A DNA stretch of 64,000 nucleotides from Deltaproteobacteria bacterium (GTDB taxonomy: Bacteria; Desulfobacterota; GWC2-55-46; JADFVP01), in the NCBI GenBank assembly GCA_029262515.1, contig JAJCZH010000029.1, positions 1,434 to 65,433 on the forward strand, read 5' to 3'. Position 1 is the stretch's first letter; the number at the start of each line of letters is the position of its first letter. This document shows, piece after piece, positions 1 through 18,217 of this stretch. Made by a program: the position numbers and the translations under genes. Under the pieces are notes generated by a model. It was not told where the DNA came from, did no database searches, and saw only the letters and a program-made list of their open reading frames with translations.

Positions 1-88
1 ACGCGCATTGGTCGGTTTCTTCTCTTGTTGGGGAGTCGGTTCGGTGGTCATACTTGACTTTCAATACGTTGTTTGTAAATATCAATTA

Positions 89-2978: not shown

Positions 2979-3206
2979 TCACTCTGGCATCACCTCCTCA
3001 TGGCCTAAACAACCCTTCTTCGGGTCGAAGTTATCGCACTCACCGACGGGCATTACGTCATGACCCTTGTCGAGCAGCTCTATTAAATTCTTACGGGCCT
3101 CGATGGGACTCACAGGACTCCCGTCTTTATGTGTAAAGAAACCGAGATCCTCGTCTTTAAGTCTCAAGGCCCCACGTATGCTCTGGCTCATGTGTTTTCG
3201 CATCAC
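2979..3206 (-). CDS. Hypothetical small protein
   Basis: 75 aa ORF in a co-oriented gene train. Confidence 0.4.
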   Translation of the reverse strand: MMRKHMSQSIRGALRLKDEDLGFFTHKDGSPVSPIEARKNLIELLDKGHDVMPVGECDNFDPKKGCLGHEEVMPE

Positions 3207-3216
3207 TTTTCCCCCT

Positions 3217-3498
3217 TCACCCTTTCCCGCAATAAGCCGCGTACCCCTTGCTGACCTTTATAATCTGCTTGCACCAGAGTACGAAGGCCTTCTTAAACTT
3301 CTTGACGTCGCCGGCGGCCGTGCGGATCTTCATCGACTCTCTCATCGCCTCGTATAACGTCTTATGCTCTTCAGGCATGCCCTTCTCGGCCCAAATTATC
3401 GCTGCCGAACCGTTTACGCGGATATGATCGTCGATATGCGCCACAGCCTGGTTAAAGACCTGAACCTCGATCTCTTCGTAAGGGTCCTTGTCGCTCAT
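3217..3498 (-). CDS. Hypothetical protein
   Basis: 93 aa ORF directly following 2979..3206. Confidence 0.45.
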   Translation of the reverse strand: MSDKDPYEEIEVQVFNQAVAHIDDHIRVNGSAAIIWAEKGMPEEHKTLYEAMRESMKIRTAAGDVKKFKKAFVLWCKQIIKVSKGYAAYCGKG

Positions 3499-3751
3499 AT
3501 ATCCCCCTATACTTTACACAACCGGCTTGTTGCTAACCTGATAGACACAAACGGCGATGGAGGGCTGCACGTCGCTCGCCTCGTGCAGCCCGGGGACAGT
3601 TATCACTTAACGAGGCTTAGGAGATGTAGAAAAGGGCCCCGGGCGAGTTACTCTGTCCATGTGTCGCCGCTCCCGATTATAGTTGAGGGCATATTTCAGT
3701 TCGTCTCTCAGGGGACTCGAACCCCATATTGACAAGCCCTCTTGGAACTCC

Positions 3752-4372
3752 TTAAAACGGCACGGCGCTTTCTTCAGGCGCGCCCTCTACCTTTACCTGC
3801 TCTATCACCGGCCTCGGGCCCTTGATAATATCGTTGTACTGGTCGGTCTCCACGGCTATAACGCCCTTTACGCGCGCCGTGACGCCTACCTCGGGCATGT
3901 AATCGAGACCGAGCTTGTTCTCGGCAGTTATAAATAGCTCGAAAGTCTTGCTCTCGTCCTCGCGCCGGATCTCGAACTCTAGCCGCTCGTCACCATCATC
4001 GACCGTGGCGCACTTGTTTACCGTGCCCTTAAGAATGAAGACGGCACGGTGTGCCTTGTGCTGGTCAGACTCGGGATCCCATGTGCTGAACTCGTAGACG
4101 TTGAAGTTTGTAGTGACCTTCTTGCGATTCTTGCGGTTGGTCGTATACTGGTCGAGAAAGGCCTTGAGGTAGACGGTATCGCCGACCTTGAAGGCCTCCT
4201 TAAAGTCCTTGAGCTTGGTTTTGCTCCAGATACGGCAGAAGGCTATTACGTTGCCGTACTCACGGCTGTTGCACTCCACCTCGATATCGAGGTACGGGCT
4301 ATTATTCCTGGTCTGCTTCTCTTTGAATGATTTAAGCAGCCCCCATATAAGGGCCGAGTTGAAGTGCTTCAT
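3752..4372 (-). CDS. Hypothetical protein (206 aa), charged, possibly nucleic-acid binding
   Basis: Long ORF. Its start overlaps the stop of 4369..4551 (ATGA). Confidence 0.5.
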   Translation of the reverse strand: MKHFNSALIWGLLKSFKEKQTRNNSPYLDIEVECNSREYGNVIAFCRIWSKTKLKDFKEAFKVGDTVYLKAFLDQYTTNRKNRKKVTTNFNVYEFSTWDPESDQHKAHRAVFILKGTVNKCATVDDGDERLEFEIRREDESKTFELFITAENKLGLDYMPEVGVTARVKGVIAVETDQYNDIIKGPRPVIEQVKVEGAPEESAVPF

Positions 4373-4551
4373 CTGTCCTCTATGTTTAAGGCCTTCTTTA
4401 TCTCTGGCCAGATAGCCTGTTCCATATCGAAGAGCATATCGTCTACGCGATCGAGACCCGGCTTTTCCATCTTAATGTCAACCCTTATCTCCATAATTTT
4501 CTCGCGGATAGCGTCATAGAGAGCCTGCTTTTTCTCTTCGCTTAACCTCAT
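4369..4551 (-). CDS. Hypothetical small protein
   Basis: 60 aa ORF coupled to the downstream gene. Confidence 0.4.
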   Translation of the reverse strand: MRLSEEKKQALYDAIREKIMEIRVDIKMEKPGLDRVDDMLFDMEQAIWPEIKKALNIEDR

Positions 4552-4576
4552 AACATCGATTCCTCGTGGTTGACAC

Positions 4577-4693
4577 TCAACAGCAGTAACCGATACAGAC
4601 GAAACGCTCGATAATATCGAGGCTCGTGTTGATAAAGATCAGTGCGGTGATGATTATCATGAGCACAATAAGTAGATTAATATCTATCTTCAT
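4577..4693 (-). CDS. Small hydrophobic peptide (38 aa, 'MKIDINLLIVLMIIITALIFINTSLDIIERFVCIGYCC'), not in the ORF track
   Basis: Its ATG overlaps the stop of 4690..5016 as ATGA. It is a single transmembrane-like peptide. Confidence 0.3.
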   Translation of the reverse strand: MKIDINLLIVLMIIITALIFINTSLDIIERFVCIGYCC

Positions 4694-5016
4694 CCCGTCA
4701 GCTCCTCCTCATTGTTGTCCATGCGCTTGATAGCTTCGTCACGGAGGCCTCTGAGCCTCCGGAGCTTCACGATCTCAAAGCTCATGTAATTTATCGAGTC
4801 GAGCAGCTCCAGCTCCGCCTCGAGCAGGAAGTCGCGCGGGTCGGTAGGTATGTCGAGTACTCCGTTCTTTTTCTCGCCCTTAAGGAACTTGCCGAAGGCG
4901 TTAAAGAGTACTCCCATGATCTTGGCGTCGGACGGCGGACGCTCGCTCTCACCCATATCGTACTCGGCAACCAGCCGGTCCATCCGCTCTTGAGCCTCTT
5001 TACTCAGCGGCATCAC
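4690..5016 (-). CDS. Hypothetical protein
   Basis: 108 aa ORF. Overlaps the start of 5013..5651 (ATGA). Confidence 0.5.
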   Translation of the reverse strand: MMPLSKEAQERMDRLVAEYDMGESERPPSDAKIMGVLFNAFGKFLKGEKKNGVLDIPTDPRDFLLEAELELLDSINYMSFEIVKLRRLRGLRDEAIKRMDNNEEELTG

Positions 5017-5651
5017 TCACCCCCTACTTTGACGTCTAAGTTTTTTAGATTGTTGTTAATCCCCTCGATTAACATGTCTACGTCACACAACTCATCCTCG
5101 AACAGCAGTTTCACAGCCTGCAGGACTCTTGCTCTGCAGCTCTCGGTGAGGGGTTCGAGAACCCCTAAAACAGTCTTGAACGGTTCAAGGGGGCTGTCGG
5201 GTGCAGGAGTAACAACAACGGGTGGTATAGGATCATCAAGCGGAGCCTTCCCCTCGGATATAGGCGTATACGTTCCGCCGGTCTTTTTTTCCTTCTCAAC
5301 CGGTTTCTTCTTGGCCTTTTTGGATTTATTCTTGTGGTAATACTCCTTATTGAGACAGGCACGGCACTTGCCCTTCGTGCGGTTGAACCCTGAGAGAGCT
5401 TTCGAGGCTGGCGTTTTACAAACCGAACACTCAGGCTCTTTAGGCTCTGCGGGCTTACCCTTCTGTCCGCGACATACCAGGGATGTACAGCCTTTGGTCT
5501 TCTTCAAGAGCCCGCAGGTCGGACACTCAGCATCACCCGGTTTTGGCTCCTTAGGGTGCATCTCTGCATCCTCGCAATTCATGCAGTAGCGACTATGCTC
5601 CAGTGAATACTTCTTGCACCCCTCTGTCGCACAGATATCTCCGTTAGCCAT
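5013..5651 (-). CDS. Cys-rich multi-zinc-finger protein (several CxxC pairs) with a Lys/Pro-rich linker
   Basis: 'CATEGC', 'CMNC', 'CPTC', 'CSVC', 'CRAC' and further Cys in the first ~120 aa, then a 'KKAKKKPVEKEKK' linker. Confidence 0.55.
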   Translation of the reverse strand: MANGDICATEGCKKYSLEHSRYCMNCEDAEMHPKEPKPGDAECPTCGLLKKTKGCTSLVCRGQKGKPAEPKEPECSVCKTPASKALSGFNRTKGKCRACLNKEYYHKNKSKKAKKKPVEKEKKTGGTYTPISEGKAPLDDPIPPVVVTPAPDSPLEPFKTVLGVLEPLTESCRARVLQAVKLLFEDELCDVDMLIEGINNNLKNLDVKVGGE

Positions 5652-5945
5652 TTATCCCCCCACTCCTGTTTGAACCGGCTTAACCGGCCCGGCGTGATCG
5701 CCCTTTTTAATCTCCGTAACGATCGCAAGCTTTTCCCTCAGTTCATCTATGTCCGGGTTTGCCGCCTCGAAGTAGACGGCCCTCTCGACCTGGCACGTCT
5801 CGAGGCGCCCCCTGATTATTGCCATCTGGTACATTGCGTCCTCGTCGATCTCCGCGCGCTCAAGGTTGCGGCCGTGCCAGATACCGAACTGTATTGCCGC
5901 AATAAGCATGACCGGAAAAAGTATATAGACGGTTGCATTCTTCAT
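5652..5945 (-). CDS. Small membrane protein
   Basis: 97 aa with an N-terminal hydrophobic helix 'VYILFPVMLIAAIQFGIW'. Confidence 0.4.
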   Translation of the reverse strand: MKNATVYILFPVMLIAAIQFGIWHGRNLERAEIDEDAMYQMAIIRGRLETCQVERAVYFEAANPDIDELREKLAIVTEIKKGDHAGPVKPVQTGVGG

Positions 5946-6027
5946 GAGAAAACCCTCCGTAGCAGCAGCCCTACAAGCAGCATAAAACCTATGCAGAAAG
6001 ACTCGGCCAGTATGAGTTCGTGAAACT

Positions 6028-6702
6028 TCAAGAGGCTGCCTCCAGTACGCGCTTTACGCTGTTAGCGAACCACTCACCGCCCTTCTTTGTCGGGACATTG
6101 AACCTGTTCAGCTCGCGCGCAATTCCCTGATAACCGAAGTCTCTATCATCCATATCTATTATCTTGTCGATGATCTTCTGCTCTTCTTCATTCTCTACGA
6201 GCATGCCGTCGACAACATCGTATCCGTAAGATGCATGGTTATAGGCCACACCAGAGGCCTTCAGATAGGCAAGGGCGTCCGTGGTGCGCTCAGAGATGAG
6301 GTTGCGCTCCATCTCGGCACAGGCGGCCATAATCGTGAAGAAGAAGATACCCATTGCAGACTGGGTATCTATAGACTCTGTAACGGAGTGAAAGGCCACT
6401 TCGGCCTCGTTGAACTGACTTGCTGTATCGAGTGCGTCTTTAGCGTTACGGAAGAGGCGGTCGAGCTTATAGACTATAACGGCATCTATTACACCATGTA
6501 AGGCGGCGTCTATTACCGCATGCGCCCCGGGACGATTCTTTATATCCTTGCCAGAAATGCCCTCGTCTCGACAGATGTTTACCAGCTCCAGGTCGTGCAG
6601 CTCGGCGTAGGCCTTGATCTTCGCCTCCTGGTGGGCGATGCTGATGCCCTCCTTGGCCTGCTCCTCGGTCGAGACTCTTATATAACCGAAAGCCTTCTTC
6701 AT
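6028..6702 (-). CDS. Serine recombinase (resolvase/invertase family). ORF-track frame extends to 6750; the start is more likely 'MKKAFGYIRVS' at 6702.
   Basis: N-terminal 'GYIRVSTEEQ' catalytic-serine motif of resolvase-family recombinases. About 224 aa. Confidence 0.8.
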   Translation of the reverse strand: MKKAFGYIRVSTEEQAKEGISIAHQEAKIKAYAELHDLELVNICRDEGISGKDIKNRPGAHAVIDAALHGVIDAVIVYKLDRLFRNAKDALDTASQFNEAEVAFHSVTESIDTQSAMGIFFFTIMAACAEMERNLISERTTDALAYLKASGVAYNHASYGYDVVDGMLVENEEEQKIIDKIIDMDDRDFGYQGIARELNRFNVPTKKGGEWFANSVKRVLEAAS

Positions 6703-6956
6703 GCGCAGACCTCCTTCAGGTGAAGGTTCTTGTCGAGAGGGCGCCGGCAACGCCCGTTGTGCCGGTCCTTACCGCTGCCGCGCTTATGGGCCTTTGTGTA
6801 GTCTTCGATAATACGGCCGCACCTGTCGCATGTGGCCGGATGGACCGAAGTAATCTTGACGATAAAGACCACGCCGCACGGCTTGCAGATATAGTCGTTC
6901 TCCACACGGCCGTAACGCTTAACCCTTTTCGAATCGCAGACCGGGCAACGTCTCAT
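6699..6956 (-). CDS. Zinc-ribbon small protein
   Basis: 'CPVCDS...CKPCG...CDRCG' Cys pairs. Coupled to the recombinase gene. Confidence 0.45.
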   Translation of the reverse strand: MRRCPVCDSKRVKRYGRVENDYICKPCGVVFIVKITSVHPATCDRCGRIIEDYTKAHKRGSGKDRHNGRCRRPLDKNLHLKEVCA

Positions 6957-7414
6957 GCGCCTACTCCTGCACTGACAGAACTCATTGCAGCCCGTAGGTC
7001 GGCTTTAATGGTCGGCCTAAGAAAAGCATCAACCATATGAGAGAGAGTGGCAACCTTGGAGGGGTCTTCATCACGCGCTACCTTGAGGACCTTACCTACA
7101 AGGATCCCCTCGTCGGGGCTTAACTGCAGACCTGCCGAGGCGTGAGCGGCCGGAGCGGAAAGATCGACCGGCATATTCTCCGGCGGCGTTACGCCGTCGA
7201 GGTACATCTTGCCTTCACCGGTCAAGAGCCAGTCGACTGATAGACCTGTAAGCCTTGAGAGCTTAATCACCAGGCTGGGCGGTATCGAACCACGCTTCTT
7301 ATAATTCGACATCGCTTGAGGAGTAACCCCTAGTTTTCTGGCCAGCGCCGAGTCATTCTTTAAGTGGTTGCCCCAGCGCATCCGTTCTACTATCTCCGCA
7401 TAATTCTGTTCCAT
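6953..7414 (-). CDS. CI-like HTH transcriptional repressor (phage repressor N-terminal domain)
   Basis: 'SALARKLGVTPQAMSNYKKRGSIPPSLVIKLSRLTGLSVDWLLTGEG' is a typical CI/Cro-type HTH. Confidence 0.6.
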   Translation of the reverse strand: MEQNYAEIVERMRWGNHLKNDSALARKLGVTPQAMSNYKKRGSIPPSLVIKLSRLTGLSVDWLLTGEGKMYLDGVTPPENMPVDLSAPAAHASAGLQLSPDEGILVGKVLKVARDEDPSKVATLSHMVDAFLRPTIKADLRAAMSSVSAGVGA

Positions 7415-7416
7415 AT

Positions 7417-7605
7417 CTACCTCCCGCTTGGTAGCTCTATGTGGTTATCCCCGGACACCGTGTCCGGAGTATCTGAAAAAAGTATCTTCATCTGGCCGTC
7501 TTCAGGTGCGACGGCATTCAAGAGATCAGCCGGCCTTATCTCTCCGTTAAAAAGACTGTGTACGAGTTCTCTACATGTAACCTGGTCGGTGTTCCTCACG
7601 CTCAA
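7417..7605 (-). CDS. Hypothetical small protein
   Basis: 62 aa ORF coupled to neighbouring genes. Confidence 0.3.
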   Translation of the reverse strand: MSVRNTDQVTCRELVHSLFNGEIRPADLLNAVAPEDGQMKILFSDTPDTVSGDNHIELPSGR

Positions 7606-7781
7606 GTCCTCGACCTCTTCAGCCTCTTCTTCCTGTATGCCTTTATAGCCGCTTCGGTAAAGTGTGCCGGGCGGCCCGGAATGTAGGCTATTTCCCTTGC
7701 GGACATTTTGTTCCGAAGGGTTGACGGCTTCAGCCCTAAAAGCTCAGCAGCTTCGAATGTTGTGTACAGTTTTTCAATCAT
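7602..7781 (-). CDS. Excisionase/AlpA-like HTH DNA-binding protein. ORF-track frame extends to 7841; the start 'MIEKLYTT' at 7781 is more likely.
   Basis: 'LYTTFEAAELLGLKPSTLRNKM...' resembles MerR-type excisionase HTHs. Its ATG overlaps the upstream stop as ATGA. Confidence 0.5.
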   Translation of the reverse strand: MIEKLYTTFEAAELLGLKPSTLRNKMSAREIAYIPGRPAHFTEAAIKAYRKKRLKRSRT

Positions 7782-8296
7782 CTGACCCTCTCTCCAATAA
7801 CTGCGAGCAGCCCCATAACGGCCTGTACTGCCTCCATACACTCTTTGCTGAGCTCCTTGAGCTCGGCCTTCGACACCTTGTTATCCTTGAGAACCTCGGC
7901 CAGCTTCTGGCTCGTCTCCCCGAACTCCTTGTTGTAGGTGAGAATCGCCTGCATCAACTCTTTGTCGGATGTATTGCTTGCCGGCATCTTCACCGGCGGC
8001 ATAAAACCGAAACGGGCGCATAGCCATTCAATTGGCACGTACGCCCTGTCGGGGTCGATCTTTGCAATTGTAGTTATTATGGTTTCAAGACGGTCGAGGG
8101 GATTACGGGCCCCGGACTGGTCGGGGTCGTCAATAGTTGAAGGAGGTGAGCACCACATACGGACGAGCCTACCGGAGAGATGAAGGTCATCAGCAACGAT
8201 CGTCGTATGCCGCCTTATAGTCTCATCAAGCGCCTCAAAAGATTTCCAGTACGCAAGCCCTTCTTTACTCATTGCCGATCCCCGCTTAATCTGCAA
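7778..8296 (-). CDS. Hypothetical protein
   Basis: 172 aa ORF at the head of the leftward transcription unit. Confidence 0.5.
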   Translation of the reverse strand: MQIKRGSAMSKEGLAYWKSFEALDETIRRHTTIVADDLHLSGRLVRMWCSPPSTIDDPDQSGARNPLDRLETIITTIAKIDPDRAYVPIEWLCARFGFMPPVKMPASNTSDKELMQAILTYNKEFGETSQKLAEVLKDNKVSKAELKELSKECMEAVQAVMGLLAVIGERVR

Positions 8297-8387
8297 TTGT
8301 CAGTTGCGCGGCCCTCTGCTACGATTTAGCATGGCCACCTATTTACAACCTACATGGAACCTGATAAACTCAAACTCTAAAAGAGCG

Positions 8388-8432
8388 CAGACAGGCCCGA
8401 ATAAATCTGCCCGATCTCATCGGGCCCGTCTG
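8388..8432. promoter_or_regulatory. Imperfect 13-bp inverted repeat (cagacAggcccga...tcgggcccgtctg) in a divergent intergenic region. Possible operator or structured RNA.
   Basis: 12 of 13 positions are complementary with a 19-nt spacer. Located between divergent gene starts at 8296 and 8535. Confidence 0.3.
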
Positions 8433-8534
8433 CTGGTATCGAGCACCGATCGCGTCGGTAGGTGGGGCCTGCGACCGCCACCGGGCTCAATTCGTTTAAA
8501 AACTTGTTCTGGATCTTCTATATATGGAAAGCTT

Positions 8535-8771
8535 ATGTCTCAAGATATTGAAGAGCCTTATCTTTTAAAATGTCCTAAGTGCTATACTTCGCGTTCAGGG
8601 ACAGGGTGGTCGTCAATAGATGAAAAGCGTCCCTATTGCGCAGGTTGTGGCACACGTTGGATAGCAAAATGTCCCGGTTGCGGTATATTAATCGATCCAA
8701 CATTTCACTCGAAGAAGACTGAAAAAAACTGTGTATCTTGCGGCACATCGTTCTCAGCCACGCCTACCTGA
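8535..8771 (+). CDS. Small zinc-ribbon protein. ORF-track frame 8304..8771; the likely start is 'MSQDIEEPY' at 8535.
   Basis: 'CPKCYT...CAGCGTRW...CPGCG...CVSCG' shows four CxxC pairs. Confidence 0.35.
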   Translation: MSQDIEEPYLLKCPKCYTSRSGTGWSSIDEKRPYCAGCGTRWIAKCPGCGILIDPTFHSKKTEKNCVSCGTSFSATPT

Positions 8772-8922
8772 GTTTATAGGCGCAACAAGGGGCAAACTTA
8801 GCATCAGGATCGTTCCGAAAAATCTCTTTAATTTCTTCAGGGAACTCCATGCTACAGTTTGGGCACTTATCAGGCAGTACGAACATGGCTGTTTTGTTAT
8901 TTTTAAAGTTTTCATTATTCAT
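8764..8922 (-). CDS. Small Cys-containing protein (52 aa, 'MNNENFKNNKTAMFVLPDKCPNCSMEFPEEIKEIFRNDPDAKFAPCCAYKLR'), not in the ORF track
   Basis: Its ATG overlaps the stop of 8922..9182 (TGATG). Confidence 0.3.
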   Translation of the reverse strand: MNNENFKNNKTAMFVLPDKCPNCSMEFPEEIKEIFRNDPDAKFAPCCAYKLR

Positions 8923-9182
8923 CACAGACCTTTTGTTTGATGTGTCGGAGCACCCTGAGCTTCTGAATTTGAAGCATCCAGGAGATTACGCAGTCGCTCC
9001 ACAGAAGGGTTCGGAATAACTACGTGTCTGTGTAGCTTATTGTCCCAAACTCTTAACAAGGTGCCGTCTTGGCATATTGAATCGATAAGCTCCTGTGAAG
9101 ATAAGTCTTCACGGAACCGGTCAAGATCAATAATTTGAATGTTTACTGAGATTTTTTTGTAATGACGTTTTGGTTTACTCAT
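8922..9182 (-). CDS. Hypothetical small protein in the cro position, divergent from the S24 repressor
   Basis: 86 aa ORF. Transcribed divergently from 9272..9898 across an AT-rich 90-bp region. Confidence 0.45.
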   Translation of the reverse strand: MSKPKRHYKKISVNIQIIDLDRFREDLSSQELIDSICQDGTLLRVWDNKLHRHVVIPNPSVERLRNLLDASNSEAQGAPTHQTKGL

Positions 9183-9271
9183 CGCAGGCCCCTTTATTTG
9201 ATGTGTATGGGTAGATATTAGAAGTATTTTTCTAATTTGTCAAGCATATATATAAATTATATTCTATTATT
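9183..9271. promoter_or_regulatory. AT-rich divergent promoter/operator region (cI/cro-like switch)
   Basis: A 'tatatataaattatattctattatt' tract between divergent regulator genes. Confidence 0.4.
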
Positions 9272-9898
9272 ATGAGCACAATCGGTCAAAGACTTAAAAA
9301 TACTAGAAAAAAAATTCTACAAATTTCGCGTGAGAAGTTTGTAGAAGGGCTTTCTATTTCCACAAAAACCCTTGAAAACTACGAAAACGACGGCACCTCT
9401 CCGGATGCCAACTTCTTCACCCTGCTTTGGGGGAAGTACCACGATCAGCTAAGCATGAGCGACCTCGACTGGATTATGTGGGGCAAGCGCATGGAGTACG
9501 AAGTCGCAACAACAACCCCGGTTCTGGGGCGTGTGCCTGCTGGCTTTCCGGAAAACATAGCCGAAGAGGATATACTCGAGTACATAAGCATGCCCGGAGC
9601 GCCGAAGGAGGCCTACTCGCTCATCATCGACGGTAACAGCATGGCCCCCGATATTAAAGACGGCGACTATGTCATTTTTTTGCCTGCAGAGCGCACCAGT
9701 ACAAACCCCGGCGACATAGTCGTCATCAACGACGAGTTCGGGCAATCTATGATAAAGCGCTATGTCCTGAAAGATGGTCAGCCGTACTTGAAAAGCGACA
9801 ACCCCGAGTACCCAGGCTTCGAACCAAATGAACATTACACGGTAATTGGTAAGGTTATTGATGTGTGGAGCAGAAAGAAAATAAGGAGCGCACCGTGA
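9272..9898 (+). CDS. LexA/CI-like repressor with an N-terminal HTH and a C-terminal S24 peptidase domain
   Basis: 'IDGNSMAPDI' is the catalytic Ser motif and 'MIKRYV' carries the catalytic Lys. HTH at the N-terminus. Confidence 0.75.
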   Translation: MSTIGQRLKNTRKKILQISREKFVEGLSISTKTLENYENDGTSPDANFFTLLWGKYHDQLSMSDLDWIMWGKRMEYEVATTTPVLGRVPAGFPENIAEEDILEYISMPGAPKEAYSLIIDGNSMAPDIKDGDYVIFLPAERTSTNPGDIVVINDEFGQSMIKRYVLKDGQPYLKSDNPEYPGFEPNEHYTVIGKVIDVWSRKKIRSAP

Positions 9899-10710
9899 AG
9901 AAGTTGATAATACTGCTATTCGTTCTGGCTCTGCCCGCAATGGCTGAAGCAGCATCCTATAACAAGGCATCGATGTACAACCAACATGGCTTAAGTGCTG
10001 AAGCCAAAAAGGAACTCATCAACCTGATCTACAGCAAGACTACTACTGTCGAAAAAGCAAAGGCACATTATCTTCTAGGCACCATCGCTTTTAATGAAAA
10101 TAATGTAAGAGTTGCACTCAAAACTTGGAAAGACCTTGTCCGCAAGTACCCGAACTCCCAAGAAGCTACCTTAGTTAAAGACCGCATTAAAGAACTGTCA
10201 GATATCGTAGGTGATATTAAAGCCGATACCCTTAAAAACGCTCTGGCACAGACATATTTACGACATGGAGACTTTTGGACCAAGAATAAAGCGAGCAGGT
10301 TTACTATTGACTCAAGCTGGCTACCAAAAGTTGAAATGGCGTTAAAGTGGTACGATAAGGTGATTGCTAAATTCCCAAAAACAGACGCTGCCCGCGTTGC
10401 ATATGAGTCGAAGCTAATGACCTTGCTGGGATGGAAAGATAGAGGACGTAATGCAACTTCATACGGCGTAAGAAAGAGCCTGACAGAATATATGCCTCAA
10501 TTACTCGAAACTTTCGCGGCATTTGAAAAAGACCACCCGGATGCCTCCTCTCTTCAGGCTTATCGTTATCAGATCGCACAAGCGTATTGGGACAATAAAG
10601 ACTGGGATAAAACACGTGAATGGTTAAACACGGTTATAACAAAGGCGGGTGATGCAGATAGCTTTTACAAGGACGCAGCACAAAGACGCCTTGAAAAAGT
10701 CGTGTATTAG
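9895..10710 (+). CDS. Secreted TPR-like repeat protein. GTG start overlaps the upstream stop; the ORF-track frame begins at 9865.
   Basis: Signal peptide 'KKLIILLFVLALPAMAEA'. Helical-repeat composition with 'AKAHYLLGTIAF...' and 'AQAYWDNKDWDKTREWL'. Confidence 0.55.
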   Translation: MKKLIILLFVLALPAMAEAASYNKASMYNQHGLSAEAKKELINLIYSKTTTVEKAKAHYLLGTIAFNENNVRVALKTWKDLVRKYPNSQEATLVKDRIKELSDIVGDIKADTLKNALAQTYLRHGDFWTKNKASRFTIDSSWLPKVEMALKWYDKVIAKFPKTDAARVAYESKLMTLLGWKDRGRNATSYGVRKSLTEYMPQLLETFAAFEKDHPDASSLQAYRYQIAQAYWDNKDWDKTREWLNTVITKAGDADSFYKDAAQRRLEKVVY

Positions 10711-10816
10711 CGCTGTTGAAGGAGATCTTTAATACTTCTGTACCATCGAGGCTGGTGACATGAGTATTGTTAATTTTATAAAATTGAAATAAAGAATATA
10801 AAAGGGAGGCACGTAC

Positions 10817-11230
10817 ATGCTCACCATCTTTGTATTATGGGTCGTACTCGCTGTCGTCGCTGGGATTGTCGCTAATAACAAGAACCGTAGCTCGGTAATT
10901 TGGGCCCTTCTCTGCTTCTTTCTCACCCCAATTCTGCTGCTTATACTCTTGGCCTTACCGAAGCTCGAACCCAAGGCGCCGCATCAAACCGGTAAGCTCA
11001 CGAGAAGGCAAGCATCGTCAGTCACACCTGCACCGATAATGGACGACCCGGGCGAGACTCGTAAATGCCCTTTCTGCGCCGAACAGATACTGGCCGAAGC
11101 GATAATCTGCAAGCATTGTGGCAAAGAGAGCAAGATAGAAAAAGTAGCAGAGAAGTGCTCACGCTGCGGCATCGAGGTACTTGAGGGAGCATCTGAATGT
11201 TTCAACGGTCACTCACAGGACTACTCCTGA
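10817..11230 (+). CDS. Membrane protein with a C-terminal zinc ribbon
   Basis: Two TM segments, then 'CPFCAEQ...CKHCG...CSRCG'. Strong RBS 'aagggagg' upstream. Confidence 0.5.
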   Translation: MLTIFVLWVVLAVVAGIVANNKNRSSVIWALLCFFLTPILLLILLALPKLEPKAPHQTGKLTRRQASSVTPAPIMDDPGETRKCPFCAEQILAEAIICKHCGKESKIEKVAEKCSRCGIEVLEGASECFNGHSQDYS

Positions 11231-11616
11231 TAGGGTTGCTCATTGCAGGGGGGACAGTTTTTGCCATATTGACACAGGGCGCAATTAACGCTTTCGCCGC
11301 GACCATGCACCCTGAGAAGACCTACCAGACCGCATGGTGTGACGAGCATAAAGGGGAAATGGAGTACGTCGTCTCTGGCGGATCCCGGGTTGATTGCCTG
11401 ACCGAGAAGTATGCTGTTGAGGTTGACTTTGCGCATAAGTGGCAAGAGGCGATCGGCCAGGCTCTATACTATGCGCGAAAGACCGACCGGGCCCCGGGCA
11501 TAGTTCTCATTATGGAAAAATCGGGCGACCACAAGTATCTCGGGCGGCTCTTCTATACCATCAAAGAACGAGATGAATTTATAAAGGTCTGGACCATCGG
11601 ACCAGGGGATCTATGA
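11197..11616 (+). CDS. Hypothetical exported/membrane-anchored protein
   Basis: N-terminal hydrophobic helix. Its 3' end 'KVWTIGPGDL*' is repeated as a scar at 12725-12761. Confidence 0.5.
   Translation: MFQRSLTGLLLIGLLIAGGTVFAILTQGAINAFAATMHPEKTYQTAWCDEHKGEMEYVVSGGSRVDCLTEKYAVEVDFAHKWQEAIGQALYYARKTDRAPGIVLIMEKSGDHKYLGRLFYTIKERDEFIKVWTIGPGDL
11578..11616 (+). repeat. Junction repeat copy A: 'ataaaggtctggaccatcggaccaggggatctatga', followed by the vestigial start 'atgagcattaaataa' (MSIK*) of the zinc-ribbon gene
   Basis: Near-identical to 12725-12764. The 'ggatctatga' junction recurs at 13721-13730, and a similar 'ggggagcctatgag' precedes zinc-ribbon copy 1 (12401-12420). Confidence 0.5.
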
Positions 11617-11626
11617 GCATTAAATA

Positions 11627-12112
11627 ATGCCAGTGTCTCTGGCAGTGAAAGGAGCGAGGGATTTGAAGAAGCTATTGATTCTTATAGGTGTGATATTTTT
11701 TATGGGGTGTGCGGCTGCACCTGTTCAACGCGCTGAACCTAAAACAATGGAGTTTCAGCAGCCTTTTGATAAGGTCTGGAGTGCCGCCGTCAGGATCATC
11801 ACTGTCGACAACGACCTGCCTATCCAGGTAATAGAAAAAGATTCCGGAATTATTACCACCGATTGGGTTACTTATGAACGCCCTGTTAAAGGCATGGGTG
11901 AGGCCTTCATGATATCCAGCTCAAATACTACTAACCCGAACATTCAGATACGTTACAAATTGAATATTAGTATTGAGAAGACCGACAACGGAACAGAGGT
12001 TTATATCCGCGATCATGTAGAGCGGTTCAGTGGTATGACTTGGAGTGTTACTAATGAACGCCCCCCGGCTCTTGAGAATATCGCGGCGGACCTGGCGGCT
12101 AGACTAAAATAG
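11627..12112 (+). CDS. Putative lipoprotein. Alternative TTG start at 11663 with RBS 'gaaaggag'.
   Basis: 'LLILIGVIFFMGC' is a lipobox-like signal peptide. Confidence 0.5.
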   Translation: MPVSLAVKGARDLKKLLILIGVIFFMGCAAAPVQRAEPKTMEFQQPFDKVWSAAVRIITVDNDLPIQVIEKDSGIITTDWVTYERPVKGMGEAFMISSSNTTNPNIQIRYKLNISIEKTDNGTEVYIRDHVERFSGMTWSVTNERPPALENIAADLAARLK

Positions 12113-12123
12113 GAGATGGACCT

Positions 12124-12399
12124 TTGGCTCTTATACAATGTCCCGAATGCAATAAAGATATCTCTGACCAAGCGGTAGCCTGCCCCCAATGCGCCCACCC
12201 AATAAAAGCCGTAACCATTGAGGCGACCGGAAAGCGATGGAAGGGTATACAGCTTATCTGTGCCCTATTTATTATAATCGGCGCTTTCTGGGCAGCGAGC
12301 AATACTCAGGGGGGGCCAGCGTTCGGTGGTATTCTTGTAGCGGTGGGGCTTATCGGTTTTATAGTAGCCCGACTGGGCGCATGGTGGGGGCACGGTTGA
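12124..12399 (+). CDS. Zinc-ribbon membrane protein (TTG start)
   Basis: 'CPECNK...CPQCAHP' then two TM helices. RBS 'aggag' 8 nt upstream. Confidence 0.45.
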   Translation: MALIQCPECNKDISDQAVACPQCAHPIKAVTIEATGKRWKGIQLICALFIIIGAFWAASNTQGGPAFGGILVAVGLIGFIVARLGAWWGHG

Positions 12400-12414
12400 T
12401 ATTATGGGGAGCCT

Positions 12415-12564
12415 ATGAGTATTAAAACCATAGACCTGACCCTCAAATGCCCGTCGTGCTCTCACGAGTGGACTGAGCACCTCGAAGTTGGAGAGATTCT
12501 CTTACGTCCACCGTGCCCGAAGTGTACCGACCAGCCAGTTTATATGCTGAAGATTAAAGCTTGA
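12415..12564 (+). CDS. Small zinc-ribbon protein, paralog copy 1 (49 aa, MSIKTIDLTLKCPSCSHEW...CPKCTDQPVYMLKIKA); not in the ORF track
   Basis: CxxC-x17-CxxC. Has two paralogs at 13727 and 15504 (about 70-80% nt identity by eye). Confidence 0.5.
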   Translation: MSIKTIDLTLKCPSCSHEWTEHLEVGEILLRPPCPKCTDQPVYMLKIKA

Positions 12565-12628
12565 GGCCGCCGATGAGACGCCTCCTTATAACAATAAAGG
12601 CAGTAACCATGCTTAGGGAGCTCAGAAC

Positions 12629-12733
12629 ATGAAGAGGTTGCTGGTCTTATTTTTTGTTCTGACTCTGCCCGCACTGGTTGTGGCCGGCGATTCTCCCGTT
12701 ATTAAGCGTTCAATCTTTGGACTCTACCTATAA
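12629..12733 (+). pseudogene. Truncated remnant (34 codons) of a secreted-protein gene paralogous to the 5' end of 9895..10710
   Basis: 'atgaagaggttgctggtcttattttttgttctgactctgcccgca' is homologous to 'gtgaagaagttgataatactgctattcgttctggctctgcccgca'. The ORF stops inside the junction repeat. Confidence 0.4.
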
Positions 12734-12764
12734 AGGTCTGGACTATCACCCGTGAGGATCTATG
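12725..12764 (+). repeat. Junction repeat copy B: 'ataaaggtctggactatcacccgtgaggatctatga', with the ATG now used by the 300-aa cargo gene
   Basis: Matches the 3' end of 11197..11616 plus the zinc-ribbon start context. Confidence 0.5.
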
Positions 12765-13664
12765 AAATCTATAAATGATCTAAATAGACAACTCGTACAG
12801 ATTAAACAAATTTTTCTTCATGGAAAGAAGCATGCTATTAGTAACAACGCCCTCGACAGGCTTCACTCTATAATTTCTTTAGATACAGCTATAGAATACT
12901 TCCTTGTTACTATCATCCACCAAGCTGATATAAAATTACCCCGCAAGGATGAGAACAACTTTGATTCAATCTTCGAAAACGCAAATATAGGGCTTAAAAA
13001 AATTAGAAATAATTCCATCGAACTACCCCATAAAACCGTCATTACAAGTAGAGTACATAAAGTACGAAACGGAGCTTGTCACAGCGGCAATATACCTAGC
13101 ACTGAAAGCATCAATACAGCCTTAATCCACACCGAAACATTTCTTAATGAAACCTTCAAGCTTTGCTTCAATAAGGCTTTTGGTGAGGTTTTTCTTGCCG
13201 ACATGATTGAGCACCAAGAAATCTGCAAGTATTTCAAAAAGGCAGAAGTAGCCATGGAAGAGAATGATCTTGAAAGTTTAACTGTTGAACTCGCAACTGG
13301 CATCCAAATTTTTAAGAATAAAGTCACCTCAGAACTACCAGGCTGGCTAAAGCAAATGGAAAGAACAGACGTCTCCACCACACTTGATGATAACCAAAGG
13401 ATACAAACTGCTCTGGGAGACATAGTAGAGTCGGTTTGCCTCCTTCGAAATTTTACAGTTTTCATTAGCCTTGGATTTACATTCCACGATTTGACACTTT
13501 TTATAGCAAAATTCCCAATTATTAATTTGAGTGTTAGCGGTAATATTCTTGGTGTACATCACGGCCGCATAAAACCCACTATGAGTGAGTGCGTTCACCT
13601 CATGAATGCCTTTTACAACATGATACTTTCATATCAGTCCAGCAATAAATCTATATGCCCATAG
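12762..13664 (+). CDS. AT-rich cargo gene 1: hypothetical 300-aa protein with a candidate HEPN-type Rx4H motif ('RNGACH'). Putative Abi-like RNase.
   Basis: Low-GC coding sequence. 'VHKVRNGACHSGNIP' at about residue 100 fits the R-[N]-x3-H HEPN signature. No other motif recognized. Confidence 0.5.
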   Translation: MKSINDLNRQLVQIKQIFLHGKKHAISNNALDRLHSIISLDTAIEYFLVTIIHQADIKLPRKDENNFDSIFENANIGLKKIRNNSIELPHKTVITSRVHKVRNGACHSGNIPSTESINTALIHTETFLNETFKLCFNKAFGEVFLADMIEHQEICKYFKKAEVAMEENDLESLTVELATGIQIFKNKVTSELPGWLKQMERTDVSTTLDDNQRIQTALGDIVESVCLLRNFTVFISLGFTFHDLTLFIAKFPIINLSVSGNILGVHHGRIKPTMSECVHLMNAFYNMILSYQSSNKSICP

Positions 13665-13726
13665 AAGATAATCAAAGAAACCTAGGCTTACCTCATGTAT
13701 CGAAACACTTTCATCCCTGAGGATCT

Positions 13727-13876
13727 ATGAAAGCCAAAACCATCGACCTGAACCTTAAATGCCCGGCCTGCTCTCACGAGTGGGCGGAGCGCCTCGATAC
13801 CGAGGGCGTATACCTCAACCCCGTCTGCCCGGAGTGTACCGAGCAGCCGGTCTACATTCTAAACATTACGGTCTAA
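13727..13876 (+). CDS. Small zinc-ribbon protein, paralog copy 2 (49 aa, MKAKTIDLNLKCPACSHEW...CPECTEQPVYILNITV); not in the ORF track
   Basis: Preceded by the 'cctgaggatctATG' junction. Its 3' half is nearly identical to copy 3. Confidence 0.5.
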   Translation: MKAKTIDLNLKCPACSHEWAERLDTEGVYLNPVCPECTEQPVYILNITV

Positions 13877-13970
13877 ACCAAGGTTTCAATCCAAGTAGGT
13901 TGCGAATAAGTGTTGTGTTAGAGGACACGTCGCATTGTATTCAAGGCACACTAGAAATCAAACGAGGTGA

Positions 13971-15431
13971 TTGATGGAATATTTTAAGCTTGGAGACATA
14001 TTTTTAGGTTTGAATGACGGAAAGAAGGAGGCATTAATTAGAAGTGATTTTGAAAGATTTTTTTATGATCATGAAAACATTCATGATCAAGTTATGAAGC
14101 CTCAAAATTTTTTGATCCTAGGTAAAAAGGGTTCTGGGAAAACAATTTTGGCTGAATATATAAATAAAACTTCTAAAAAGGATCCGCTGTGGTTCAGCGA
14201 GATAAGATCTTATAAAGATTTTAAATTTCATGAATTAGTCCAACTAAAAAGCGATGATATCAAACCTAATGAATATATTTCAATATGGGAATGGGTAATT
14301 CTATTAGATTTGGCAAGGCTTATACTACAAGATCAAGGTATCGACAATGTTGAGCTACGCAATAAATTAGAAAGTTTTTATACAAATAATTATTATTCAA
14401 TTGATATTGACTCTGGAAGGGTTGTTGAAATTACCAAAGAAAACCAAATAACTGGTACCATTCCAACTTCAATCGTAAATTTATCAGCGGGGCATGCCTC
14501 TAAATCAACAAAAGTTTCTGGAAGTTATTTTAATTATTTAGAAGGTTTGAGAGAAGTTGTGCTTGGCTTGCTAGAAGGATCGAGCAGTAAATACACCGTT
14601 TTTTATGATGAACTAGATGATCGCTTTAGAGATAATGAGTTTTATAAAGATGGTATTATCAGTTTGATAAAAGCAGCTGATAAGGTTAATTTGGAACTAC
14701 TGAGAAGAAATGTCGATGCCAAAATATCAATTTTGCTAAGGTCGGACATTTTCTACATACTTAATGACCCCGATCTTAATAAGATAAAAATGGATAATTC
14801 CTTGGTAATCGATTGGGGTAATATTGTGTCACAACAATCTCCTCTTTTTAAGTTGATTCTATCAAAGATCAGGACGTCTCTACCAGCCATAGAAAAGAAA
14901 AGTGATGATCAACTTTTTTCTTTATTGTTCCCTCAAGGAATTAAAGGTATTGATCCCGAGAGGTATATACTTGAAAGGACTCTCTTCCGCCCTCGGGATG
15001 TAATAACAATGTTGAACCTAATAATAAAAAAATATCCGAAGACTGGTTATTTTGGCTGGAAGGGTTTTATAGATATTAAGAAAGCTTATTCAGAGTATTT
15101 TTTTCAAGAAATAAGGAATGAGTTGTGTGGACATTTGAGCGATAAAGAAATAGATCAATCAACATTAATGATTAAACAATATAATAAGCACTTTTTTTAT
15201 TTTGATGAAATCAAGGAGTACCACAAGAAAAATATCGCAATCTATCCAGATATAAATTTAGAGAAAATTTTAAGATTATTTTTCAAATTTAATATAATAG
15301 GAAATACGTGGTTCAACAAATATAAAAATAGAAACTACTATTGTTGGGCTTATCGGGATAATAAGGCGGAAGTCGACTTTAAGAAGAAGTTTGTCATTCA
15401 TCTAGGCTTAAGAGAAGAGCTATCACTATAA
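13971..15431 (+). CDS. AT-rich cargo gene 2: KAP-family-like P-loop NTPase (putative defense/abortive-infection ATPase)
   Basis: Walker A 'LGKKGSGKT' near residue 52. Walker B 'VFYDELDD' about 160 aa later, which is the long A-B spacing typical of KAP NTPases. 'FRPRDVITMLNLI' resembles the KAP 'PRxIKRxxN' motif. Very low GC. Confidence 0.6.
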   Translation: MMEYFKLGDIFLGLNDGKKEALIRSDFERFFYDHENIHDQVMKPQNFLILGKKGSGKTILAEYINKTSKKDPLWFSEIRSYKDFKFHELVQLKSDDIKPNEYISIWEWVILLDLARLILQDQGIDNVELRNKLESFYTNNYYSIDIDSGRVVEITKENQITGTIPTSIVNLSAGHASKSTKVSGSYFNYLEGLREVVLGLLEGSSSKYTVFYDELDDRFRDNEFYKDGIISLIKAADKVNLELLRRNVDAKISILLRSDIFYILNDPDLNKIKMDNSLVIDWGNIVSQQSPLFKLILSKIRTSLPAIEKKSDDQLFSLLFPQGIKGIDPERYILERTLFRPRDVITMLNLIIKKYPKTGYFGWKGFIDIKKAYSEYFFQEIRNELCGHLSDKEIDQSTLMIKQYNKHFFYFDEIKEYHKKNIAIYPDINLEKILRLFFKFNIIGNTWFNKYKNRNYYCWAYRDNKAEVDFKKKFVIHLGLREELSL

Positions 15432-15503
15432 ACCCTCATTAGTAACGCTGTGATGGCCTGCCGTACAGCTCTTCATTCGGGCGGCCATCTACCCAAGGAA
15501 TTT

Positions 15504-15647
15504 ATGAAGACCATCGACCTGACCCTAAAATACCCGAAGTGCTCTCACGAGTGGATAGTGCGCCTCGATGCCGAGGAGGTCTACCTCAACCCCGTCTGTC
15601 CAGAGTGTACCGAGCAGCCGGTCCTTATCCTTAACATCACGGTCTAA
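15504..15647 (+). CDS. Small zinc-ribbon protein, paralog copy 3 (47 aa, MKTIDLTLKYPKCSHEW...CPECTEQPVLILNITV). The first Cys is replaced by Tyr.
   Basis: Inside ORF-track entry 15450..15647. Homologous to copies 1 and 2. Confidence 0.45.
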   Translation: MKTIDLTLKYPKCSHEWIVRLDAEEVYLNPVCPECTEQPVLILNITV

Positions 15648-15751
15648 GCCAGAGAACAGCATTCAAACCTCATTATCCAAATTTAGCATGATCAAGAGTA
15701 CTTCCTGTAGTCCGCACATTCCAACCACGCTTCCACATGCAACACTTCTAC

Positions 15752-15796
15752 CGGAAATAAACAAAGCCCACCAGTCATTACGACCAGTGGGCTTCA
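15752..15796 (-). terminator. Hairpin ('aagcccac'/'gtgggctt', 8-bp stem) with a T-rich tail on the minus strand. Likely terminator for the PEP-CTERM gene.
   Basis: Lies between convergent genes. The minus-strand read gives a stem-loop then 'tttgtttatttcc'. Confidence 0.35.
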
Positions 15797-15817
15797 AAAC
15801 CTTCTGATTTAAAACTC

Positions 15818-16471
15818 TTACTTCTTAAACCTTCTTCTCACAAACCCAAGACCTGCAAGGCCACTTCCGAGAAGGAGGAGGGTTGAGGGTTCTGGGACTG
15901 AGGCAAGAGTAATCGTAGCATCAACTGCCGTCCATCCGTGTTCGGTGTTACCTCCGTTATTTGTAAGCAGAAAGTCAACATGGTTCCCCGCAACTAGATC
16001 AAGGTTGAGCAGAGAGAAAGATGCTGTATCCAAATAGGTAGTAATGTAATCGCTAAACACAACTACACCGTTGATGGCGACATAAACGCGGTTATTAACG
16101 CTTCGGTTGTCAGTCCCAGTGAAAGCTCCTGTCACGTCATAGTTACCCGCCGTTGAAGCGGTCCAGCGCACCACTGGAAAACCATTCGAATTGTCTTTCG
16201 CCCACAAATGCGGACCATAAACAGCCCACTGGTCTGCAATACTCGGACCACCGTGCCCGTAGTTGCCCAGAAACCAACCGTCTGACCAACGTACGTTCAT
16301 AACATCTATCGTGCTAGCAGTCACGGTGGTCGTTCTTCCATAAGTCCAGTCGCCATTTGGGTTGGTAGTAGTCGAGTAGTCGCCTGAGATTGAGGCGGCG
16401 TTTGCGCTCTGAGCCAGAGTAAATCCGAAACAGAGTACCAGGGTTAAAATAGCGATATACATTTTTTTCAT
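15818..16471 (-). CDS. PEP-CTERM sorting-domain secreted protein
   Basis: N-terminal signal peptide. C-terminal 'VPEPSTLLLLGSGLAGLGFVRRRFKK' is the canonical PEP-CTERM exosortase signal (PEP motif, TM helix, Arg cluster). Confidence 0.7.
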   Translation of the reverse strand: MKKMYIAILTLVLCFGFTLAQSANAASISGDYSTTTNPNGDWTYGRTTTVTASTIDVMNVRWSDGWFLGNYGHGGPSIADQWAVYGPHLWAKDNSNGFPVVRWTASTAGNYDVTGAFTGTDNRSVNNRVYVAINGVVVFSDYITTYLDTASFSLLNLDLVAGNHVDFLLTNNGGNTEHGWTAVDATITLASVPEPSTLLLLGSGLAGLGFVRRRFKK

Positions 16472-16849
16472 AATATTCTCCTAAACATCGAATTATATAC
16501 TTATATTAAATTGTACTTGATGGGTTACTTAATTAAAAATGCAAGATGCATGCCACTACCTCTTCGCTGCCGTAACCATCTGTTTTGCTTACTAAAGAGC
16601 GTTAGGTGGCGAACTTAGTGGTTCTATATGGGGCAACAAAGTGTAAAGAAACATAACGAGCGAAATTACATAAAGAGCACAGTTCTCAAATAAGACCTTA
16701 TACTCCAGCAGGTTATGGAGTTTTCAATATGTGTAAAAATATTTGACAATGCTGGAAGAATTTACATAAAAGAGGCTTGTTAGATAGATAAGGAAGCGAT
16801 CGTGCAATATTTCTTTTGGTAATCATGTAGATTGAGCCTACCCTTAAAG

Positions 16850-16874
16850 TGCGTAGTAGTAGGTGTACTACGCA
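16850..16874. promoter_or_regulatory. Perfect 9-bp stem hairpin (tgcgtagta-gtaggtg-tactacgca) about 55 nt downstream of the integrase stop
   Basis: Read directly from the sequence. No T-tail follows, so it may be an operator or arm-type site rather than a terminator. Confidence 0.25.
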
Positions 16875-16928
16875 TCTTACACCCATCCTACAGCAAGCAC
16901 TTCCTACTGATCATGCCCCACCTACCCT

Positions 16929-17993
16929 TCACAGCAAATTGATCTCGTCATGCGTCTCTTCTATCGGTATATGAGCGTAATGCTTTGTCGTTACATCCAC
17001 GCTTGAATGGCCGAGGTACTGGCTCACAAGATAGATGGATACTCCCCTCCGGAGAAGGTGGCTACCGAAAGTCTCACGAAACGTCTGTATGGTGAGCCCC
17101 TCAACATCAATTCCGGCAACCTTGCCTATGGTCTTCAACTTACGGTTCAGGTTATTAGCTCTCGGATCCCCGTCTTTTGTAGGAAAGCACCACTTGCTAT
17201 CAGAATCCATTGCCAGGAACAGCTCACGCAGCTCCCTGTGCAGTGGAATCTTCCTCTCCTGATGATCCTTGATCTCATTCTCTTCTTTGCTCCGTACCAG
17301 CAGGTAGCCCTCATCGAAGTTAATGTCTCTCGGCTCCAGGTGTATTAACTCCCCGAACCTCAGGCCGGCGTAGTAAGCTGTGGCGAAGAGCGGGTAAAAG
17401 TCGGGATCCCGCTTCTTGATTGTTTTGAGCAAGGTGCTTATGTCTTTTAATGAAAGGTCCCTGAAGAGCTTCTTTGTAGGCTTGTCTGCCCGGACTTCCT
17501 TCGCAGGGTTGTCCGGTATATAACCCCTCTTCATGGCATAGCCCAGCACGGCCCTTAACGCCCTCAGGTCTGCACGCGCGCCGCCCGGGGTTTTCTTTCG
17601 TGCTTTTCCACCTTCTTTCTTGGCTCTACTATAAAAGCCCTCTTTTCTCTTATTGTAAAAGATCTCTACGGTATCGATATCTATTTCGGATATAAGCTCG
17701 ATACCCTCGTCTTCACAGAAATCAACAAAGATGCGCTTGCGCGTCCGGTACCATCGTTTTGTCGCTTCTCGAGGCGCTCGCTTCTCAATATATGCATCAA
17801 AAACCTCAGCGACCGACTTTTTTAATATGAGATGTTTGGACCGGTGCTTCTGTCTGCCCTCGAGTTCCTCGTAGTCCCGCAATAGGGCCGAAGCTGCGGC
17901 CTTTGCCGTTACCCTCAAAGATTTCTGAGCAGACACGCCGCCGTCCACATAGCCGACCCACCAGATTTTACCGCGCTTATAGATGTAAGCCAT
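16929..17993 (-). CDS. Tyrosine site-specific integrase (phage integrase family)
   Basis: C-terminal catalytic region '...HLLRRGVSIYLVSQYLGHSSVDVTTKHYAHI' carries the R...H-x-x-R...Y pattern. It lies directly next to the tRNA gene. Confidence 0.85.
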   Translation of the reverse strand: MAYIYKRGKIWWVGYVDGGVSAQKSLRVTAKAAASALLRDYEELEGRQKHRSKHLILKKSVAEVFDAYIEKRAPREATKRWYRTRKRIFVDFCEDEGIELISEIDIDTVEIFYNKRKEGFYSRAKKEGGKARKKTPGGARADLRALRAVLGYAMKRGYIPDNPAKEVRADKPTKKLFRDLSLKDISTLLKTIKKRDPDFYPLFATAYYAGLRFGELIHLEPRDINFDEGYLLVRSKEENEIKDHQERKIPLHRELRELFLAMDSDSKWCFPTKDGDPRANNLNRKLKTIGKVAGIDVEGLTIQTFRETFGSHLLRRGVSIYLVSQYLGHSSVDVTTKHYAHIPIEETHDEINLL

Positions 17994-18140
17994 AAATGTA
18001 AGTCTATTGTAAGTTAGAAAGTGAAACTAAATGAGATTGAGTGAAGTATAGTGAACTTACAGAGAAAAGTCAAGAGGGGTGCTTAATGTAAAAACCCCTT
18101 GATAATACTAAAAAATTAGCATTACCAAGGGGTTATATTA

Positions 18141-18217
18141 TGGCTCCCGGGGAGGGATTCGAACCCCCGACAAGGTGATTAACAGTCACCCGCTCTGCCA
18201 GCTGAGCTACCCGGGAA
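18141..18217 (-). tRNA. tRNA-Asn (anticodon GTT)
   Basis: Reverse complement 'TCCCGGGTAGCTCAGCTGGCAGAGCGGGTGACTGTTAATCACC...GGTTCGAATCCCTCCCCGGGAGCCA'. 7-bp acceptor stem, anticodon loop 'CTGTTAA', T-loop 'GGTTCGAATCC', 3' CCA. Confidence 0.8.

Follow-up and report, generated by a model that had tools for sequence, protein, structure and literature searches.

A prophage-borne member of a large, previously unannotated HEPN family as a candidate single-gene abortive-infection RNase

Integrative element and its gene content

The window considered here, i.e. the whole stretch of 64,000 nt that was analysed, opens with a prophage-like integrative element at a tRNA-Asn gene, which occupies positions 1 to ~18,200 (1-18216). 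On the minus strand, the element encodes a primase of the DnaG/Toprim type (991-2037), an SSB (3752-4372), a serine resolvase (6028-6750) and regulators of the CI type (6953-7414) and CII type (7778-8296), followed on the plus strand by an S24/LexA-like repressor (9272-9898). The right end of the island is marked by a tyrosine integrase gene (16929-17993, minus strand; Pfam Phage_integrase, 3e-24) together with the tRNA-Asn gene itself (18141-18216, minus strand; ARAGORN), the two spanning 16929-18216. To the right of the tRNA-Asn lie housekeeping genes (purB, citramalate synthase, aspartate kinase, lipoamide dehydrogenase, glmM, ftsH, der and tolB), which are those of a diderm bacterium with Tol-Pal. 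Since no direct (att) repeat of the tRNA-Asn 3' end is present in the window, the island has no defined left boundary and may extend further left than position 1.

The cargo zone near the integrase harbours the two genes discussed in most detail below, both on the plus strand: the complete CDS of a 300-aa HEPN-family protein (12762-13664, including the stop codon) and the gene for a P-loop ATPase of the Sll1717/'FunZ' family (13974-15431). Between the ATPase cassette and the integrase, a gene for a PEP-CTERM-anchored secreted protein is found on the minus strand (15818-16471), and it is followed by a strong terminator-like hairpin with a 16-bp stem (15796-15762).

Junction repeats and zinc-ribbon units

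The cargo genes are embedded in repeated sequence. An AT-rich segment of ~940 nt carrying the HEPN gene is bracketed by imperfect direct repeats of 33-37 nt (12729-12765 and 13707-13739, plus strand). The first copy, a junction reading TATAAAGGTCTGGAC..GAGGATCTATGA (repeat families D3 and D4), provides the HEPN gene with its ATG and with an RBS-like GAGGA; the second begins 42 nt after the HEPN stop codon and includes the start of a zinc-ribbon ORF (copy 2). A third copy (11580-11616) forms the end of a 139-aa ORF (11197-11616). In the alignment of these copies, the junction GGATCTATGA is invariant and the homology ends exactly at ATGA(A). Repeat recombination and cassette-like insertion are candidate origins for the bracketing of the HEPN segment. 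Directly upstream of the HEPN gene, the region 12629-12765 consists of a signal-peptide-like ORF of 34 aa (12629-12733) followed by the conserved 3' tail in another frame, and appears to be left over from a decayed paralogue of ORF 11197-11616.

Three zinc-ribbon ORFs of 49 aa (12415-12564, 13727-13876 and 15504-15647) alternate with the cargo genes in the order Zn1, HEPN, Zn2, ATPase, Zn3, and correspond to a 145-nt repeat family (D1; 12424-12568, 13736-13880 and 15507-15651). The copies share 69-83% nucleotide identity at a GC content of 49-56%, match Pfam DUF4379 (treble-clef) weakly and encode the pattern ..IDLxLKCPxCSHEW..PxCPxCTxQPV... In copy 3 (15504-15647), Y replaces the first Cys of the first CxxC (LKYPKCSHEW), and this copy may be degenerate. 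Amongst metagenome contigs, relatives of the unit were limited to a partial match of 16 residues. As a whole, the units look like a tandem paralogue array serving as a hotspot for the insertion or exchange of foreign cargo.

HEPN-family gene, motif and conservation

A preliminary description of this DNA had reported an AT-rich ORF of 300 aa with an R-N-x3-H motif near residue 100, had read the product as a possible HEPN RNase and had cautioned that a single short motif is weak evidence. The ORF was confirmed at 12762-13664 (ATG start, plus strand) with 37.4% GC, as compared to 49.7% for the window, and its product aligns with the family over the full length, the N-terminus MKSINDL matching MKFSENL of a relative (P0007). 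Residues 99-110, HKVRNGACHSGN, are encoded at nt 13056-13091 and contain the motif R102-N103-G104-A105-C106-H107 (codons 13065-13082, plus strand; R102 at 13065-13067 and H107 at 13080-13082), which is classified as an Rx4H motif of the catalytic type by its conservation and its position in the structure model.

The caution proved justified. When the protein was shuffled 20,000 times, Rx4-6H appeared in 73%, R[NDH]x3-5H in 18.5% and RNx3H in 3.5% of the shuffles, and of the window's 165 stop-free segments that measure 100 aa or more, 84 also contain Rx4-6H. The motif alone is not beyond chance, and its significance must therefore rest on conservation and structure.

In order to assess conservation, relatives had to be sought beyond curated models. 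The protein has no match in Pfam (E<=1), NCBIfam or PADLOC and no PDB match by sequence search, and its matches in PHROGs are sub-significant (best phrog_37995, E=0.029). A word-indexed search of 5.8 billion proteins returned, apart from the query, only a single fragment at 61% identity. Exhaustive HMMER searching of 1.84 billion cluster representatives, each standing for one cluster at 50% identity, retrieved 439 proteins at E<=1e-3 (82 at E<=1e-10), and the median length amongst the best 150 of these is 302 aa. The searched viral contigs, plasmids and phages yielded no relative, and one apparent genomic relative (locus L005) was rejected as spurious, being antisense to a phosphofructokinase gene and seeded by the stretch DDNQRIQT.

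Conservation of the R and H amongst homologues had been named beforehand as a test, and both residues are present in all 151 sequences compared (the window protein and the best 150 of the 439 representatives). The same set shows N103 in 131/151, P112 in 148/151 and E45 (codon 12894-12896, plus strand) in 146 of the 147 representatives aligned at that position. The position four residues after E45 is K or R in 97/151 and V49 in the window protein. In an alignment of 61 sequences at 20-35% identity, E45, R102 and H107 are the only invariant columns, and the family consensus around the motif reads h-R-N-x-x-Q-H-x-G-x-I-P-S.

Amongst the 61 aligned members, eight relatives reach the Pfam family HEPN (PF05168), all below the gathering score (best 2.7e-5). 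These matches span residues ~37-139 on the protein side and 26-114 of the 117 profile positions, and thus sit on the N-terminal domain. Two of the 61 relatives match HEPN_Swt1 weakly, and two match the PADLOC Csx1/Csm6 CARF+HEPN model.

Predicted fold and domain architecture

The HEPN domain has been defined as a four-helix up-down bundle, often with an insert between helices 2 and 3, with a polar residue after the R of the motif and an acidic residue in helix 2, often within Ex3[K/R] (Anantharaman et al. 2013, PMC3710099). The structure model of the window protein contains such a bundle in residues 1-137 (12762-13172, plus strand), made up of helix 1 (4-26), helix 2 (30-54), an insert (67-82), helix 3 (91-108) and helix 4 (114-136). 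All the sequence and structural features of the definition are present: R102 and H107 lie at the end of helix 3, the R is followed by N103 and E45 lies within helix 2. The earlier expectation of a HEPN-like helical bundle at the N-terminus, with the motif close to where the domain ends, is thus borne out by the model, where the motif closes the helix 91-108 within residues ~1-137. The fold, which is predicted with confidence, and the invariant E, R and H together support the HEPN call, and the protein almost certainly belongs to the HEPN superfamily.

The remainder of the chain forms a C-terminal domain (residues 141-300; 13182-13661, plus strand), which consists of helices and one beta-hairpin according to the secondary structure of the model. 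It has no significant match amongst PDB sequences. The possibility of this half being a second, degenerate HEPN copy found no support (hhalign probability against the N-terminal domain, 2.4%). Residues 141-195, which include the first hairpin, are recognisable in 128 of the 151 representatives and residues 205-300 in 76, indicating that the family is characterised by HEPN plus a C-terminal domain, of which the distal part varies more. By analogy with DARNA and ApeA (described below), the C-terminal domain is presumed to be a regulatory, sensor or oligomerisation module.

Comparison with known HEPN systems

Foldseek searches of the model against the PDB and BFVD gave no significant match. The closest structures are AF0298, YutE and sacsin, HEPN-T proteins of unknown or non-nuclease role. 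The classical HEPN/HEPN-T group (PF05168; AF0298 2hsb, YutE 1ylm, sacsin 3o10 and TT1696 1ufb) differs from the present family on several counts: the window protein has no Pfam match and its relatives remain below the gathering score; HEPN-T proteins are usually ~120-150 aa long and often occur as pairs or fusions with MNT, whereas here MNT is absent and a C-terminal domain of 160 aa is added; and the motif's H is typically missing from AF0298-type proteins (PMC3710099), whereas the new family keeps both the canonical R and H. Likewise, HepT of the HEPN-MNT (HepTA) systems is set apart by the lack, in the present case, of an adjacent MNT antitoxin gene and of a DUF86 match, and by a chain that is twice as long here and carries the extra domain. 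The ORFs flanking the HEPN gene are the decayed remnant, the zinc-ribbon peptides and the P-loop ATPase, with no NTase amongst them.

In its layout, the protein resembles DARNA (PD-T7-3), a single-protein HEPN abortive-infection tRNase with an N-terminal HEPN domain and an active site formed in the dimer (bioRxiv 10.64898/2026.02.22.705581). Both are encoded by a single gene and place an N-terminal HEPN domain with Rx4H (R117/H122 in DARNA, R102/H107 here) before a non-catalytic C-terminal domain, and a similar sensing logic is presumed for the window protein. DARNA, however, has 456 aa and an all-helical, Pds5-like C-terminal domain of 300 aa that binds ssDNA, as against 160 aa with a beta-hairpin in the present protein; PADLOC PD-T7-3 does not match the window protein and is not amongst the families listed for the 61 members. 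The likeness is one of layout and working logic rather than membership, and any homology may extend no further than the HEPN fold.

ApeA is a single-gene Abi protein, an anticodon-loop tRNase whose activating ligand binds away from the catalytic centre (bioRxiv 10.64898/2026.01.26.701840), and its genes are also found inside R-M operons (PMC3710099). The profile of the N-terminal domain gave nothing significant against PDB sequences, the best sensible match being the ApeA motif (RtRNlivHtGktPS against klRNnaqHegsiPS), which is not significant at E=0.11. In Ec2ApeA the HEPN motif region is C-terminal (residues 471-527 of a 593-aa chain), as is typical of ApeA with its large N-terminal domain, whereas the HEPN domain is N-terminal here, and HEPN_Apea is not amongst the Pfam families listed for the 61 members (the 25 most frequent of 42).

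The Abi_2/AbiD/AbiF proteins, to which the preliminary description had compared the protein, are bacterial HEPN proteins of ~300 aa with an Abi function, often encoded inside R-M operons (PMC3710099). This identity did not hold up, as the window protein has no match to Abi_2 (PF07751) at E<=1 and Abi_2 is absent from the 25 Pfam families (of 42) most often matched by the 61 members. The Abi2/Swt1 clade is pointed to by the weak HEPN_Swt1 matches alone. CBASS effectors, for their part, combine a CD-NTase operon with a SAVED- or CARF-like sensor, whereas no cyclase or nucleotidyltransferase match was obtained amongst the island ORFs scanned and the C-terminal domain is helical rather than Rossmann-like. 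The 300-aa protein therefore fits no existing named HEPN family. The family to which it belongs is large (at least 439 clusters, from bacteria and archaea) and previously unannotated, and adds to a well-known superfamily rather than representing a new kind of system.

Genomic contexts of homologues and the neighbouring ATPase

Several relatives are encoded next to or near genes of a defence or mobile type. In a Thermoplasmatota MAG, the family gene is flanked on one side by the gene for an R-M methyltransferase and on the other by that for a type I specificity subunit, and P0004 adjoins a pair of type II methyltransferase and restriction enzyme genes inserted after ruvABC. P0003 is located directly upstream of an HNH effector-like gene (PDC-M68A, 6.5e-36; L002 1324-2394), and a gap of 62 nt separates P0005 from a downstream CBASS-type cyclase gene (oligonucleotide cyclase N-terminus, 5e-25; L004 1043-1246). 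Further members are found downstream of PDC-S12 and an NYN nuclease (P0008), near PDC-S63 (P0007), close to genes for a CHAT protease and a UvrD helicase (P0079) and adjoining an RHH-PIN pair of the TA type (P0009). The occurrence of HEPN genes inside R-M operons is well described, with at least 16 clades (PMC3710099). We infer the defence association of the family by guilt by association from a small sample of loci. The position of P0005 and P0003, which are amongst the closest relatives, beside CBASS-type components may reflect clustering within islands or a link of some members to cyclic-nucleotide signalling.

The gene downstream of the HEPN gene encodes, from its ATG, a 485-aa P-loop ATPase with 31% GC and the Walker A motif GKKGSGKT. 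It had been taken for a KAP NTPase, an assignment that has to be replaced: the protein has no match to Pfam KAP_NTPase (PF07693) and matches NCBIfam NF047389 ('P-loop ATPase, Sll1717 family') over its full length at 1.6e-87, along with phrog_13260 at 3e-76, a weak mad8 match in PADLOC and weak generic P-loop matches in Pfam. Its relatives, annotated as 'FunZ' or hypothetical, occur on Bacillus pXO2-type plasmids (B. anthracis), a Vibrio IncC plasmid, Klebsiella phage Kp4865-2 and Lactococcus phage CAP; the family occurs as a solitary accessory gene on plasmids and temperate phages (two plasmid neighbourhoods examined). The literature on 'Sll1717' and 'FunZ' yielded nothing informative. The ATPase gene is itself a candidate for a stand-alone role in defence or exclusion.

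Adjacency raises the alternative of a two- or three-gene system, in which the HEPN protein would be the effector and the ATPase its sensor or regulator, as in PrrC and RloC, with the zinc-ribbon peptide as a possible third component. PrrC and RloC are HEPN nucleases known to be under ATPase control (PMC3710099), and the two genes here share a strand, have no terminator-like site between them on the plus strand and are the sole strongly AT-rich genes of the island (37% and 31% GC). They are, however, separated by 306 nt that include a zinc-ribbon ORF of normal GC content, and their pairing was seen in no other locus examined, from either side: tblastn found relatives of neither the ATPase nor the zinc ribbon in any of the other HEPN-family loci, and six-frame hmmsearch of the two annotated plasmid loci detected no HEPN-family gene near the ATPase relatives in any frame. 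Members of the ATPase family are moreover known from pXO2-type plasmids and two temperate phages. Downstream of one other HEPN-family gene, P0006, a small P-loop protein is likewise encoded, but phmmer detects no similarity between it and the Sll1717/FunZ ATPase. A joint system is consequently considered unlikely. Across the HEPN-family loci as a whole, tblastn, all-against-all blastp of the neighbours and six-frame hmmsearch revealed no conserved partner gene. The HEPN gene would most likely be a single-gene unit, with the ATPase as a separate cargo gene.

Proposed function and mechanism

HEPN RNases are amongst the commonest effectors of prokaryotic immunity, with Cas13, Csm6, PrrC, ApeA, DARNA and HepT as examples. 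For the protein described here, the reading favoured overall is that of a probable single-gene, prophage-borne abortive-infection RNase with an N-terminal HEPN domain and a C-terminal regulatory domain. Its components differ in strength: catalytic RNase activity is predicted with good confidence by analogy with characterised HEPN enzymes, and a role in defence is favoured with more modest confidence.

By the same analogy, the HEPN domains would dimerise so that two Rx4H motifs build one metal-independent endoribonuclease site, cleavage at which would leave 2',3'-cyclic phosphate ends. The enzyme would stay latent until a phage-derived cue acts via the C-terminal domain or through oligomerisation; once active, it might cut host tRNA, mRNA or rRNA, so that translation stops and the infection is aborted. 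The gene would represent AT-rich foreign cargo near the integrase of the tRNA-Asn-integrated element and, as cargo of an integrated prophage-like element, would guard the lysogen against other phages.

A role outside defence, such as RNA binding or processing, or service as a prophage regulatory or anti-defence factor, is quite unlikely. Some HEPN domains are non-catalytic binding domains (PMC3710099), the closest structures are the HEPN-T proteins of unknown or non-nuclease role named above, and the gene belongs to a plus-strand gene run downstream of the S24 repressor of the island. Nevertheless, HEPN families that retain the motif have metal-independent RNase activity and non-catalytic ones typically lose it (PMC3710099), so that the invariant R, H and E and the near-invariant N are the signature of an active HEPN domain; furthermore, the relatives lie in R-M operons or beside CBASS and PDC genes rather than genes of RNA metabolism. 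Least probable of all is a toxin-antitoxin module, in which a constitutive HEPN toxin would be neutralised by an RNA or a small neighbour (for example, the 49-aa zinc-ribbon peptide) as in HEPN-MNT and AbiF, given that no MNT gene lies beside the HEPN gene in the window, the zinc-ribbon ORF occurs in three copies (one of them after the ATPase gene) and is absent from all the homologue loci, and no small partner conserved across loci was found.

Within the favoured reading of a single-gene abortive-infection RNase, a more specific proposal can be made, although it is rather doubtful: the C-terminal domain (~141-300) could be an infection sensor of a new type, by which the HEPN nuclease is turned on, and the HEPN and FunZ/Sll1717 ATPase genes of the island might be exchangeable cassettes between diverged zinc-ribbon units that act as a recombination hotspot. 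If the sensor proposal were true, the family would constitute a distinct single-protein abortive-infection system. In either case, the 300-aa protein is a short and easily testable candidate for a new trigger-sensing domain on a HEPN nuclease. The view of how HEPN systems work stays unchanged by the finding. Its value lies in annotation, as several hundred clusters matched by no Pfam, NCBIfam or PADLOC model at threshold are now given a fold, an active site and a likely role, which lets genome annotation and defence-system finders recognise the members.

Two weak matches point to phages. The best viral structural match in BFVD is A0A8S5V3T9 (Siphoviridae sp. cttKr9, 302 aa), with a full-length alignment of 294 columns (probability 0.91, E=0.15), and the phrog_37995 profile of 299 positions matches residues 6-169 of the HEPN protein weakly at the E-value given above. 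Both are possible phage-borne relatives of the family.
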